From Gordius albopunctatus (lineage: Eukaryota): a stretch of DNA of 64,000 nucleotides. Location: NCBI GenBank assembly GCA_964276515.1, contig OZ193909.1:4960001-5024000 (forward strand), given 5' to 3'. Positions within the stretch are counted from its first letter, which is position 1. Every line of letters begins with the position of its first letter. Below the pieces are notes generated by a model. That model worked only from the letters and a program-made list of their open reading frames with translations, did no database searches and had not been told where the DNA came from. Shown here piece by piece: positions 4,469 through 15,262 of the stretch. Made by a program: the position numbers and the translations under genes.

Positions 4469-6113
4469 CTATTGAATATGTTTAGACCTTCTTGCATTCA
4501 ATTTTGGGCCTCTTAAAGCACCCTTTTGGAGTTTTTCCAACATTTTGATCAAATTGTCTAACATTTCGATGTCACGGGCCAAAATCCTCTCAGGAGTTCT
4601 GATTTTGGTCAAATGATTTACTTGTTGCGAAAATTCTGGTAATTGGGGCCCAATGACGCTCTCTATAGCACAACCAATTTCGTTCAATGGTTCTAGTATA
4701 GTCAATATAAGATCTGTCGACAACTTTTCGGCACCCGTCCATACGTTGTAAACTGCATTGATTGCATCATAGGTCGGCACAAGCATTGGCGTAAGCTATT
4801 GAAAAAGTGAATTAATAAATCAAATTAAAATAGTTTTTCCATACTGTCCTTACCAACATGATTATTTCACAAGGGAAAATTGAAAATTATTTTGATACAA
4901 AATTTGAACCTTTTATTACTTGAAATACGACAAATATAACTATTTTGGAAGGGAAAAATTTTATCAAAGCCAATCGTTAATTTCTGTTAATAAAATTAAC
5001 TCAAAATTATTACCAAATTGTAACCTCTTTTTATGAAATTGAACACTTTTTTCCACCATTTGACTTCCACCTGTTTCTCCTCCTCGTCTACACGCCCAAC
5101 CTGTCGCAACGAATTTCGTAGATTTGTTTATATAGAGAAATACAGAAAAGATTCACCATATCATTCATATTATAGATGAATCATGGGCGTAGCCAGGTTT
5201 TGGATGGGTGGGGGGGGGCGAAAATTGTTTTAGTTCAATTGGGGAGGGGGGCAAAACATAGTTTTTTTAATTTTTAAGGGTTTTTGTATTGAATTTTTTT
5301 TATTATTTAGGGGGTGGGGCGGCCGCCTTCCCCTGCCCCCCCCCCTGGCTACGCCCTAATGATAAAGCAAGTTAATAAATTGGCTTTGAGAGTAGATATT
5401 ATTTAGAATTTTATTTAATTTGATTAAATTTTAGATGAATATACGAAATGTTTAATGTTCTCAATATATATGCTCACTAATTCTTCTTTAGCCATACGTG
5501 AGGCAGCGATCGCCGTGACTATGGGTCTTTTTATCCGTTCTATCAACTCGTCTACGCTCATTCCCCTTAATGGAGGACATTCAATTGTTGACCTACGCGT
5601 CATCACCCTAGGTCCTATTTATAGTAATGGTTTAAAGAATAAAACCTGGATATTTCTAGTGCTATTCCCATCGAACAAAAAATTTATATCTTTTAGCCTA
5701 TTACACGTGTTTTAAATTTCATGATTTGCTTTCGACAGAAGTTATGAGAGCCTATACTTTATCCTCAAATACACACTTAACACTCAAAAAGTAAAAGGTA
5801 TAGAGAAAATATTCAGCTTAAATAAAATTATAACAAAAGGCAATCATTTCGAGTGATACTAATTATGTCAATAAATTAGTGAATACTGTTGAGACAGAAA
5901 AAAAATTTGCTTGTTAGTTTCTATTATAATATTACACATAAATTTTGATTTTATGTAATTATGAGTTTTTAGAGGAATATGGCAAACTGTTTGCTACAAA
6001 ACATATAATAGTTCCAAATTAAAATAATACTAGCACAGATATGTACAATTACTTGGTGCTGAAATTCCGATAAATATTGTTAATAGGCTAATGATGAAGA
6101 TATAATTTGCCAT
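4469..6113 (-). CDS. Unknown secreted helical protein, family copy A (4 exons, 203 aa)
   Basis: Exons 6113-6053, 5614-5478, 5100-5014, 4795-4469, all GT-AG and in frame: MANYIFIISLLTIFIGISAP|RPRVMTRRSTIECPPLRGMSVDELIERIKRPIVTAIAASRMAKEEL|VGRVDEEEKQVEVKWWKKVFNFIKRGYNL|LTPMLVPTYDAINAVYNVWTG...LEPLNEIGCAIESVIG...LARDIEMLDNLIKMLEKL...RRSKHIQ*. Exon 2 (137 nt) and exon 4 (327 nt) match the paralog at 14137-15262 in length and phase. Confidence 0.88.
5182..5358. mobile_element. MITE with GGGCGTAGCCAG termini in intron 2 of copy A; related copies near 27441, 41118 and 51951
   Basis: catgggcgtagccagg ... cctggctacgccc inverted termini with internal G and C runs; the same termini recur elsewhere in the window. 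Confidence 0.7.
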
Positions 6114-6195
6114 AAAATACCGTTTGCAGAGTAATGGAAAGATAAAGGTCTAATTAAAAATAGAGTTCTAGAACACGAATTTCGAAGTCTTACAG

Positions 6196-6617
6196 ATTTT
6201 AAAAATTTCTTGCGAATAACCTAACATTGAAACGTGGAAAAATCCACATAGCTGGTTTAGTAATGAATATAAATTGGTAACTTATTCGATTCATTCATGA
6301 ATTAATCTATATAATAGGAAATTCCTGTATTAACACACACGGCAGAATATGTACCATCTAAAAAATGGTCAACTAAGGATATTATGACTTTACTAGGGCC
6401 CTTTAACCAGTTAGGGTGTATTGTTGAGGGTATAGTAGGCCCTATATTTCCTTCCGTCTCTAGACAAATAATGGCTCAGGCCGATGTCACATCTGAAGAT
6501 GAAGTCTTGGCTAGAGATTATGTAATGGTGAAAAACATCGTAAAACTGTTGGAAAATATGAAAAAGGCATTAAATCGTAGGAAGCATCCTTCTCGCTTAC
6601 ATTTAAGATACGATTAA
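6196..6617 (+). pseudogene. Family copy B: exons 3-4 only, probable pseudogene
   Basis: Exon 4 (6318-6617, after tag acceptor) reads EIPVLTHTAEYVPSKKWSTKDIMTLLGPFNQLGCIVEGIVG...SRQIMAQADVTSEDEVLARDYVMVKNIVKLLENMKKAL..., clearly homologous to copies A and C. Putative exon 3 (6196-6276, cag..gt) reads ILKISCE*PNIETWKNPHSWFSNEYKL with an in-frame TAA. No exons 1-2 were found upstream. Confidence 0.75.
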
Positions 6618-6678
6618 AATTGAAAATGTAATTGCACCTGCGTAATATGCCTCTTATAACACTTTATTAGACGTGTTA

Positions 6679-6943
6679 TAATAAGTTATTATACAATTTA
6701 TTTATCTAAATAAACCATTATTATGCCTCAATATTTCATTTATCAAAATAGTGGTTTTGAATATAAGGTTGAAAAAAATTATAAATACGACATTGGATAC
6801 CAAATATTGTGAAGACAAAAAATATATTAAGAATGGTTGGGGCTTGTTTGGTCTGCAAATAAATTATTAGTTAATAGGTCAGAGGGTGACCATGCTACCC
6901 TTTTGATAAAAACTGGAATCTTTGCTCCCCTTTAGCCGAATTT
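6679..6943. repeat. Left arm of a ~265-bp inverted duplication (partner 13016-13283); 3' flank of copy B
   Basis: Reverse complement of 13016-13283, roughly 95% identical by manual alignment; contains AATAAA. Confidence 0.9.
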
Positions 6944-13015: not shown

Positions 13016-13283
13016 AAATTCGGCTAAGGGGGGGGGCAAAGATTCCAGTTTTTATCACAAGGGTAGCATGTTCACCCTCTGACCTATTAACTAAGAATTT
13101 ATTTGCAGACCAAACAAGTCCCAACCATTTTTAATATGTTTTTTTTCTTCACAATATTTGGTATCCAATATCTTATTTATATATTTTTTTCAACCTTTTA
13201 TTCAAAACCACTATTTTGATAAATGAAATATTGAGGCATAATAATGGTTTATTTAGATAAATAAATTGTATAATATCTTATTA
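13016..13283. repeat. Right arm of the inverted duplication (partner 6679-6943); 3' flank of copy C
   Basis: Reverse complement of 6679-6943; similarity runs up to the Helitron insertion point at 13283/13284. Confidence 0.9.
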
Positions 13284-14019
13284 CTAGCTGTGCCCGGCCA
13301 AGCGTTGCTTTGGCTCAGTCCTTAAGTGGTTAAATAAGTATAACCTATTAATAAGACTTATCTAAAATGGGGTCATATATGAAATAATAATTCAAATAAA
13401 TAAAAAATCCATAATATTTATTTAGAGGCGAATTTTATCACGTCATGGATTTTATGAATCCACTATTTTTAGTATATATTTAATAAGACAAACCAAATGC
13501 GAATTCTGTTTAAGTCATCAAATTCGACTAAAATTAAATGTTTTTGAAAAAATTGCTGATTAATGCTGTTACTTATTATAAAATAATACCATTTTTTTGA
13601 AATACAATTTTCTTTATAATAAAATAATTAATTGAAGGATGGATTTCAGCCTTGTATGTATGACGTCATTATTGTATATGATGCTATAAATGAAACTGGC
13701 CGAGAAATGTCCGATATTTTTAAAACGAAAAGGTATTTTAGGAATCTGAAAAAGCTATTTTATCCCTGGCATCCCTAGGCATCTACGGCTAAATTTTCGC
13801 GCAAATCGGGCCGGTAGTTTTAGAATTAAGCCATTTTTTAAAACTAAAAGGCCCATATTTTTAAAACTAAAAGGAATTTTAGGATTCTGAAAAGGCTATT
13901 TTACCCCTGGCTGTCTCGGTCATCTACGGTTAAACTTTCGCGCGAATCGGGTCGGTAGTTTCAGAATTTAGCCCTTACATACATACACACATACATAGAC
14001 TTTACTTTATATATATAGA
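13284..14019 (-). mobile_element. Non-autonomous Helitron
   Basis: On the minus strand: 5' TC(TATATATA), 3' hairpin GCCAAAGCAACGCTTGGC then CTAG, inserted at A|T. Has a (TATG)n microsatellite and a duplicated internal unit. Same family at 24533-25908 and 62311-63310. Confidence 0.88.
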
Positions 14020-14136
14020 TAAGGAATATTGGTGAATATGTGAGGGTAGGATATACAATATATGAAACAACAAATTTTCACTCCAAGGCATATATGCTAC
14101 AGAAAAAATTTGGTTGAGGCAAAAATGTTTTACAAT

Positions 14137-15262
14137 TTAGTGGTAATTGTAAAACAACTTAGGTCTACGGATTCTGGACTTTACAAGTGCTTTCAGTTCT
14201 TCCATCAAATTAATCATATTTTCGAGCACTATATAATCACGAGTCAATACATCTATTTCAGATGTGGCATGAGCCTCAGCTAAGATTTGCCTAGAGGCGG
14301 GAGGCTCCTCTACAGAACCTGTAATGCTTTCTATAACACAGCCGAGTTGTTTAAATGGTTCAAGCAGCTTAGGAATATCAGAACTTGAATATTCTTTAGG
14401 CCTAGTCCATAAACCGACTACTGTTTTTACAGCCTCTACTGTTGGTTTAAATAACGGAATATCCTTGAAAATAAATTTAATAAATAAATAAATACTTTTG
14501 CCAAGTCCTTTATGGCTTTGCCAAAGAAGCCAAACATCTTTTTAACAGCTTTTTTAGGCGATATTTTGAAGCCCTTTTCCTTGATCCTTGTACTCTGTGT
14601 GCAAATATCATAAACACTTATTTTTTAAACACCGATTTCTTTCACAAATAAAAGCTTTAAATGGCGCAATTCAAAACAACCGTTTGGGCCAAATTAAGTT
14701 TACAAAACAAACAGACAAAACATATATGTATAATCGGGAAATGACAAAATTATTAGCAAGTTAAAAATAGGTCATAACAGATTAATCAAATATATTTAAT
14801 GTTATAACCAATTCCTTGAAGATCATCTTTCCAGTTGAAAGTCCCACAGTTAGAGGCTTGTCTAGGACTTTGACAAAATCTTTTATTGCCAGCCTACCCA
14901 TATCTGGACAATCTATAAAATCTCGCCGCATCATTTTTCTCTCTCCTTTTTTGTAAAAAGTAATTTTTTAAACATTTTGACTATCGTATATTTAAAAAAA
15001 TTTTCATAAACTTTACTATAGTAAATTAATCAACCTAACGACAGTTATTATCATTAGACAAATAACTAATCCTTTTGCCTTGAAAAATACATTACAACAA
15101 AAATAATAAAGTGCTCTTTAGAATTAGATGATCACTAAACTAAGATAAGTTAATAATCAAAAATTATAATAGGAGCAGTTGACTTTTACCTGGATCAACA
15201 CCTTGACTACAAACCCAAATTAAAGCAAAGAATAAAGTTGCAAAATATTTGAGAATAGGCAT
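14137..15262 (-). CDS. Unknown secreted helical protein, family copy C (4 exons, 211 aa)
   Basis: Exons 15262-15190, 14945-14809, 14594-14496, 14463-14137: MPILKYFATLFFALIWVCSQGVDP|GERKMMRRDFIDCPDMGRLAIKDFVKVLDKPLTVGLSTGKMIFKEL|STRIKEKGFKISPKKAVKKMFGFFGKAIKDLAK|DIPLFKPTVEAVKTVVGLWTRPKEYSSSDIPKLLEPFKQLGCVIESITG...SRQILAEAHATSEIDVLTRDYIVLENMINLMEELKALVKSRIRRPKLFYNYH*. Intron phases 1,0,0 as in copy A. Not present in the supplied ORF track. Confidence 0.9.

Follow-up and report, generated by a model that had tools for sequence, protein, structure and literature searches.

An orphan family of predicted secreted helical proteins in Gordius albopunctatus

A stretch of 64,000 nucleotides of the Gordius albopunctatus genome (GenBank assembly GCA_964276515.1, contig OZ193909.1, positions 4,960,001 to 5,024,000 of the forward strand), hereafter the window, contains three copies, named A, B and C, of a real new orphan gene family, one of a common kind. 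The explanation placed first for the products of A and C, and held tentatively, is that they may be convertase-matured, disulfide-clamped amphipathic bundles of about 20 kDa that bind or disrupt membranes in defence or lipid handling. If they are membrane-active, A and C would represent a new type of antimicrobial or lipid-binding scaffold in animals, devoid of detectable relatives and simple in design, with one propeptide, one cysteine pair and one modular cationic helix. If they are not, they would join the many orphan secreted families of invertebrates, as good genes that hold no surprise for the specialist.

Structure of the two complete genes

Genes A and C lie on the minus strand and were rebuilt from the window sequence as open four-exon models of 203 and 211 amino acids, respectively. 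In gene A, exon 1 (6053..6113, 61 nt) provides the ATG and a predicted signal peptide and ends with a phase-1 donor. Exon 2 (5478..5614, 137 nt) encodes a short basic propeptide up to RVMTRR, an IxCP motif with Cys33 and two predicted helices. Exon 3 (5014..5100, 87 nt, phase 0-0) encodes an acidic linker and the cationic amphipathic helix KWWKKVFNFIKRG. Exon 4 (4469..4795, 327 nt) supplies the conserved core, which includes Cys137, as well as four predicted helices, a basic tail and the stop. Gene C is built in the same way, with the ATG and a predicted signal peptide in exon 1 (15190..15262, 73 nt), a propeptide up to RKMMRR and IxCP with Cys37 in exon 2 (14809..14945, 137 nt), a basic linker and the cationic amphipathic helix KAVKKMFGFFGKAIKDLA in exon 3 (14496..14594, 99 nt, phase 0-0) and, after an intron of 32 nt, the conserved core with Cys145, a basic tail and the stop in exon 4 (14137..14463, 327 nt).

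All six introns have GT-AG ends. Both genes share the phases 1,0,0 as well as the lengths of exon 2 (137 nt) and exon 4 (327 nt), just as an earlier note on this DNA had described for two complete four-exon genes. The equal length of exon 4 conceals offsetting indels, with 22 of 108 positions identical in the ungapped alignment and 32% identity in the gapped one. The 137 nt of exon 2 in gene C result from choosing the acceptor AG before 14945 over the AG before 14942. Within 45 nt of the ends of exons 2 and 3, 41 AG/GT combinations in A and 30 in C keep the frame open, and the modelled exon ends are therefore provisional, above all those of exon 3; the splicing of both genes is predicted. The short 32-nt intron of C compares with introns of 35 and 56 nt in KIF3A and of 38 nt in PGAP1 elsewhere in the window, and AAG acceptors are also used by KIF3A. 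In protein comparisons, the KIF3A pieces reached at best 77-78% identity with many fish sequences and 51% with Trichoplax, and a close annotated relative did not emerge.

Homology and coding constraint

The homology of A, B and C is far above chance and their substitutions show coding constraint. In tblastn comparisons of exon 4, E values were 2e-14 for A and C, 1e-19 for C and B and 7e-15 for A and B, while the best unrelated match to A or C in the window reached an E of 2.1. The eleven identical residues noticed earlier in exon 2 were recovered among 45 whole codons of the ungapped comparison between A and C, where shuffling gave 2.9 on average (p 5e-5, 100,000 shuffles). Identity was highest at second codon positions, then at first and finally at third positions in all four comparisons.

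In every pair pN was lower than pS, with dN/dS of about 0.2-0.45 and dS of 1.0-3.5, that is near saturation. These values argue for old duplicates, and A and C are accordingly best described, from their substitutions, as old paralogs under purifying selection. The label of a fast-diverging family, which the earlier note had used, finds no support in the paralog dN/dS comparison that it had proposed. No sign of positive selection was readable among the A, B and C pairs at such divergence, nor did their substitutions give any sign of recent expansion, and no close extra copies were detected at 80% likeness in two DNA runs.

These observations bear on the idea, raised in the earlier note, that A and C are toxins or parasite effectors, injected or secreted against another animal. 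It is attractive for a small clustered orphan family with a prepro layout and a dibasic site; however, only three copies lie in the window, close copies are lacking at the 80% level in the two runs, and purifying selection without a sign of recent expansion fits it poorly, so that this role is improbable.

Searches for relatives

The absence of a recognised domain, already remarked upon from the letters alone, was upheld by database searches, most of which used exon 4 as query (a three-sequence profile of A, B and C) rather than the spliced protein. When exons 4 of A, B and C and exons 2 of A and C were scanned singly, Pfam returned no homolog, the only match being DUF2065 with B (E 0.079), and exons 1 and 3 scanned in the same way had no match. 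NCBIfam gave no homolog either (best E 0.05). For exon 4, HMMER found nothing at E 0.001 among 1.84 billion representative proteins, PDB sequences contained no homolog (best E 0.77), and neither metagenome contigs (0 of 136) nor viral contigs (0 of 44) yielded a match. A set of 5.8 billion proteins, covered for those of 190-2000 aa, gave none among 7653 candidates, which is a weak test. Finally, no published family with the layout of A and C was found in the article excerpts that a literature search returned.

Two of 79 bacterial genome stretches were considered as homologs and rejected as chance matches, because their translations show little past the GC-x-x-ES motif by which they had been selected, one of them running into an immediate stop. 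In the ESM Atlas, C scored 0.90 to bacterial clusters with low recognition and A gave nothing usable; this result was not taken as evidence.

Predicted maturation

The only strongly hydrophobic stretch of each protein is N-terminal, with Kyte-Doolittle 19-residue means of 2.0 (A) and 1.7 (C) against later maxima of 1.3 and 0.8. Cleavage sites fitting the (-3,-1) rule are present in both N-termini, in A after residue 18 or 19. The signal peptide call combines these two simple heuristics. After a short prosegment, R-x-M-x-R-R is conserved in A and C, with Arg at P6 and Met at P4. This motif differs from the canonical convertase consensus R-x-x-R, and an Arg at P6 is known to help a dibasic site. 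Among the eleven exon-2 identities, four make up R-x-M-x-R-R and three make up IxCP. Some moth apolipophorin-III proteins also carry a short propeptide ending with RR.

The mature parts of A and C contain exactly two cysteines each, at aligned positions (33 and 137 in A, 37 and 145 in C), and C has a third one at residue 18, within the predicted signal. The hydrophobic N-terminus, the basic segment with MxRR and the two conserved cysteines past the signal had all been listed in the earlier note and stand as described, the basic motif being now extended. Secretion, convertase cleavage and a Cys33-Cys137 or Cys37-Cys145 disulfide would follow from this layout. The predicted mature proteins are basic (pI 8.9 for A and 9.4 for C) and contain no N-glycan sequon, and no conserved cleavage site was found after the cationic exon-3 helix.

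Helices and structural models

The mean hydrophobic moment was 0.437 for mature A (shuffles 0.297+-0.029) and 0.404 for mature C (shuffles 0.292+-0.028), above 500 of 500 shuffles in both cases, a property that is not specific to membranes since any soluble helical bundle has amphipathic helices. The top 18-residue window coincides with the exon-3 helix, with a moment of 0.70 and a net charge of +5 in A and of 0.65 and +3 in C, and was equalled by 19 of 500 shuffles in each protein (p about 0.04). Helical wheels display cleanly split faces with Lys-rich polar sides. Exon 3 is the least conserved exon of the mature region, yet it carries the strongest, cationic helix.

The helices predicted at the outset are in line with AlphaFold2 models of exon 4 alone from two copies, which are all-helical, with four helices inside exon 4 of A, and of low confidence (pLDDT 52 and 50). 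A fold search of these models with VIA-align retrieved generic helical bundles with none standing out (best Z 7.5), and Foldseek gave no match at E 0.001 for either of them. With these low-confidence queries, no apolipophorin, cytokine or lysin chain was among the fold matches listed. A complex prediction of exon 4 with exon 2 of C, run without alignments, had a score of 0.01 and gave no interpretable answer. The 11- or 22-residue periodicity of apolipoproteins is not present in A or C, a comparison of exon 2 with exon 4 disclosed no internal repeat, and the long central hydrophobic hairpin of classic helical pore formers is absent.

A and C might instead, devoid of membrane activity, serve for structure or storage in a secreted matrix such as mucus, cuticle, egg coat or yolk. 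A protein of that sort would also be secreted, conserved, basic and helical as A and C are predicted to be, and secreted-type basic helical orphan proteins are common among invertebrates. Against such a role, which is quite improbable, stand the lack of low-complexity stretches and tandem repeats in A and C, their ordinary composition and the lack of sequons.

Possible mode of action and known counterparts

The tentatively preferred explanation, a membrane-binding or membrane-disrupting bundle, can be laid out in steps. The hydrophobic stretch of exon 1 would direct the chain into the secretory route, where a proprotein convertase would cut behind R-x-M-x-R-R to release 175 (A) or 179 (C) residues. 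The cysteine located five residues into the mature chain could then bond to that of exon 4 and clamp the N-terminal end against the core. Docking on anionic membranes or lipid particles may be the task of the cationic exon-3 helix, upon which the bundle would open or insert, in the manner of apolipophorin-III, helminth defence molecules or sp18. Host defence or microbiome control, or else lipid handling, would be the likeliest use. Precedents for lipid-active secreted proteins built of amphipathic helices are described in PMC5383653, PMC7373315 and PMC9022041. On the other side, the searches supplied no homolog from which a function could be transferred to A and C, and the long hydrophobic hairpin of pore formers is missing.

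Apolipophorin-III, as described in PMC5383653, resembles the predicted products of A and C as a secreted chain of about 175 mature residues with amphipathic helices, and it has lipid and immune roles. It forms a five-helix up-and-down bundle, to which the amphipathic character of A and C and the low-confidence exon-4 models can be compared. The one mosquito example given there is acidic (pI 5.13) and encoded by two exons, whereas A and C have a pI of 8.9-9.4 and four exons; they also differ from apolipophorin-III by their conserved cysteine pair, and by lacking the periodicity mentioned above, and no sequence match to it was found in the exon-by-exon Pfam scans or the exon-4 HMMER search. Trematode helminth defence molecules (FhHDM-1, Sm16), as described in PMC7373315, share with A and C four exons, the first of which encodes the signal peptide, as well as a helical, amphipathic, cationic and lineage-restricted nature. 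However, Sm16 has 117 aa with a C-terminal amphipathic helix (PMC7373315), and the group as a whole is marked by a size of some 120 aa at most and by conservation of that helix, while A and C reach 203-211 aa, have their strongest helix in a central and poorly conserved position, carry a cysteine pair and an RR prosegment, and show no sequence match to these molecules in the exon-4 HMMER search. Cationic antimicrobial precursors of restricted taxonomic range, such as the mussel myticalins (PMC5577615), are likewise secreted, lack known relatives, belong to a multigene family and contain cationic segments, but these are short linear peptides, whereas the cationic helix of A and C is set in a conserved body of 175 residues with no conserved cleavage site behind it.

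A more specific version of the preferred explanation is doubtful. It sees in A and C a new class of animal membrane-lytic defence proteins of unrecognised fold, in which a convertase-armed, disulfide-clamped helical carrier would bear an AMP-like targeting helix on a symmetric phase 0-0 exon, able to diverge or to be skipped or swapped with the core untouched.

In abalone, the sp18 paralogs combine a signal peptide with one structural cysteine pair, are tandem duplicates of 27.5% identity, and are fusagenic (PMC9022041). The predicted signal peptide, the single conserved cysteine pair and the divergent clustered paralogs, together with size and basic charge, recall them and would suit a gamete or adhesion protein, sp18- or lysin-like, acting in fertilisation or attachment. 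Such a function is unlikely, as the Pfam, HMMER and PDB searches with exons of A, B and C gave no sequence link to sp18 or lysin and the positive selection of that system is not seen, dN/dS being below 1 in all pairs, where saturation hides site-level selection. Its mechanism, membrane action, overlaps with that of the preferred explanation and the biological role differs.

Helical cytokines, too, are secreted and helical, their genes have phase-0 introns, and their sequences are so little conserved that they are difficult to recognise (PMC2654155). A convertase-matured receptor ligand, cytokine- or hormone-like, would agree with a secreted-type, all-helical chain of about 175 residues with one cysteine pair and two phase-0 introns, and it is a rather unlikely identity for A and C. 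In the IL10 and IFN-lambda genes, the helices are spread across five exons by phase-0 introns (PMC2654155), whereas A and C have four exons with phases 1,0,0 and four predicted helices in exon 4 alone. Their dibasic prosegment and cationic helix set them further apart, and a ligand role needs neither a Lys-rich amphipathic helix nor basic tails.

The third copy and its surroundings

Copy B lies on the plus strand and consists of an exon 3 remnant with an in-frame TAA (6196..6276, 81 nt) and an open exon 4 (6318..6617) of 99 aa that is 42% identical to exon 4 of C, the two being separated by an intron of 41 nt. The half copy proposed earlier thus keeps an intact exon 4 and a traceable exon 3, to which the stop has to be added. 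Exons 1 and 2 of B were not found within the window and B is therefore likely a 5'-truncated pseudogene, a third copy in decay; neither a third exon 2 nor a fourth exon 4 was found within the window.

Only 82 nt separate the ATG of A from the exon 3 remnant of B on the opposite strand, so that A may have lost its promoter region or may share it. This proximity, the many splice alternatives that keep the frame and the already broken state of B would be expected if the models were partly wrong or the genes silent relics, A having lost its function in the rearrangement that cut B short. Such a scenario is very improbable: in A and C all eight exons read open, are bounded by GT-AG introns and agree in phase, their GC content (0.30-0.47) is higher than in the introns beside them, and C is letter-identical across 13994-15500 in the contigs listed for each of the two DNA runs. 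Contigs from these two runs of one study cover the exons of A, B and C at single-copy depth, and they do not count as independent support because both runs are possibly the source of the window itself. A single contig spanning 5282-6570 crosses the A/B junction. One X2 contig over 6175-6570 contains 20 gap letters.

No Rfam family was found between 4000 and 16000 of the window. An inverted repeat flanks part of this region, with one arm on the plus strand 61 nt downstream of the stop of B (6679..6943, about twice single-copy depth) and the other on the minus strand downstream of C, beyond high-copy repeats (13016..13283). Both arms are 94% identical.

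Gene models and copy number

The orphan family is real and consists of two intact gene models plus a truncated copy. The loci of the intact paralogs, genes A and C, were read and then rebuilt by script. Gene A (minus strand; exons 6113-6053, 5614-5478, 5100-5014 and 4795-4469) encodes 203 aa and gene C (minus strand; exons 15262-15190, 14945-14809, 14594-14496 and 14463-14137) 211 aa; in both, the only stop is the terminal one. The 6 introns are all GT-AG, with phases 1,0,0 in each gene. Both have an exon 2 of 137 nt, a length that in C hinges on the choice between two AGs 3 bases apart, and an exon 4 of 327 nt, an equality that masks offsetting indels. 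An earlier note had described this four-exon layout, with these phases and lengths, in a three-copy family of two complete members and a partial one, and the rebuilt models reproduce that description. A 110-nt GT-AG stretch (15263-15372, minus) ends directly before the ATG of C and is likely a 5'-UTR intron of this gene or an upstream coding exon.

The truncated copy B lies on the plus strand and retains an exon 3 with an in-frame stop (6196-6276) and, after a 41-nt intron, an open exon 4 (6318-6617). Across the 64 kb, neither a PSSM nor two HMMs found additional copies of exon 2 or of exon 4. Over B (6175-6570), one X2 contig has 20 gap letters relative to the window where the X1 contig has none, which may reflect an indel polymorphism in B. 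The ATG of A and the exon-3 acceptor of B, on opposite strands, are 82 nt apart (6114-6195), and one contig (5282-6570) bridges the junction. Given this distance, either the promoter of A overlaps what remains of B or the truncation of B took it away. A 265-bp inverted repeat of about twice single-copy depth has one arm 3' of B (6679-6943) and the other 3' of C, past high-copy repeats (13016-13283). Its arms are 94% identical although the coding DNA of B and C has a dS of about 1, a contrast that would follow from recent conversion or from a duplication at an inversion breakpoint.

Homology, constraint and relatives

Ungapped, exon 2 of A and C has 11 identities in 45 positions where chance would give 2.9 (p 5e-5). 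The E values of exon-4 pairs run from 1e-19 to 2e-14; the best unrelated match to A or C in the window has an E of 2.1. Identity by codon position follows the order second, first, third in 4 of 4 comparisons. For exon 4, pN/pS is 0.46/0.71 (A-C), 0.45/0.74 (A-B) and 0.35/0.56 (B-C), and for exon 2 it is 0.51/0.81. After correction, dN/dS comes to about 0.31, 0.20 and 0.45, with dS values (1.0-3.5) too high for exactness. With pN below pS in every comparison and such dS values, the three copies are old paralogs on which purifying selection acts; the fast divergence ascribed to the family earlier is not supported. Contigs from two DNA runs of one study, perhaps the source of the window itself, cover the exons at a depth that remains that of a single copy down to 80% likeness. 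Among the contigs listed, C shows 0 differences and exon 4 of A a single one, at residue 145. The models of A and C are open and homologous and show constraint; that they are silent or mis-modelled seems very improbable.

The exon-4 profile, three rows that leave aside exons 1-3 and that distant homology could escape, had no relatives in Pfam, NCBIfam, PDB sequences, the longer proteins of a 5.8-billion set, 1.84 billion cluster representatives, or metagenome or viral contigs, in keeping with the earlier remark that no domain is recognised. Two bacterial pattern matches to the exon-4 motif were rejected as relatives.

Protein anatomy and possible function

In both proteins the most hydrophobic stretch is the N-terminus, and a heuristic predicts (-3,-1) cleavage sites at about residues 19-21. 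A short basic segment then ends in RVMTRR or RKMMRR (common motif R-x-M-x-R-R), and an arginine at P6 favours convertase cleavage. The predicted mature chains after this RR, of 175 and 179 aa, have a mass of 20 kDa and a pI of 8.9 and 9.4. Each has exactly two cysteines at aligned places, as had been noticed earlier: the first five residues past the predicted cut, the second in the exon-4 core L-x-x-(I/L)-G-C. AlphaFold2 models, which cover exon 4 alone, are of low confidence (pLDDT 52.5 and 50.4) and show four helices.

The amphipathicity of both mature chains exceeds that of 500 out of 500 shuffles. The window of highest moment is in each case a Lys-rich exon-3 helix (0.70, net +5; 0.65, net +3) with cleanly separated apolar and cationic faces, a moment matched by 19 of 500 shuffles in each protein. 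Exon 3 is the least conserved of the mature-region exons in sequence and length. Its 0-0 phase makes in-frame skipping possible, and with no conserved basic site after the helix, release of a free peptide is not indicated.

Together these features suggest, somewhat short of an even chance, that the proteins would be secreted and cut after RR, that a disulfide would tie the new N-terminus to the core of a helical bundle, and that the cationic exon-3 helix would lead its action on lipid surfaces. However, soluble bundles are also amphipathic, the exon-3 signal is modest and a long hydrophobic hairpin is absent. Of the rivals, a receptor ligand and, slightly less so, a gamete or adhesion protein are unlikely; a toxin or parasite effector, and after it a matrix or storage protein, are distinctly unlikely. 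A bolder reading, a new modular membrane-lytic defence protein, seems rather unlikely.

Among known systems, apolipophorin-III has five amphipathic helices, a 175-aa mature chain and lipid and immune roles (PMC5383653), but differs in charge and gene structure. Trematode HDMs have four exons and a cationic amphipathic helix (PMC7373315), but differ in protein size and helix position. Abalone sp18 has one Cys pair, divergent duplicates and fusagenic activity (PMC9022041), but its sequence is without any link to A and C. The exon-to-helix map differs from that of IL10-type cytokines (PMC2654155). At best, A and C might act like apolipophorin-III, trematode HDMs or sp18, and they are filed under none. 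The novelty is that of a sequence family; its kind, lineage-restricted secreted amphipathic proteins, is already familiar.

Genomic setting

The host is an animal and probably a divergent invertebrate. The window has a GC content of about 30% and many high-copy repeats. A PGAP1-like gene (1900-3010, minus; Pfam PF07819) is split into small exons by candidate introns of 38 and 53 nt and perhaps one of 28 nt, and a KIF3A kinesin gene (33800-43040, plus) has introns of 35 and 56 nt. Introns of 35-56 nt in these genes make those of 32 nt in C and 41 nt in B ordinary here. The best database identity of the KIF3A motor exon is 77-78%, to fish, and the database comparison found no closer annotated relative. 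Peptidase C54 (ATG4-type) exons lie at 52600-56480 (minus), a stop-interrupted Gypsy-like LTR retrotransposon with RT, RNase H and integrase at 57976-61759 (plus), and decayed PIF1-helicase pieces, probably Helitron-type, at 26300-27200 (plus). An open 99-nt exon-like piece with AG-GT bounds (10352-10450, plus), in a bin of about 10x single-copy depth, probably belongs to a repeat.
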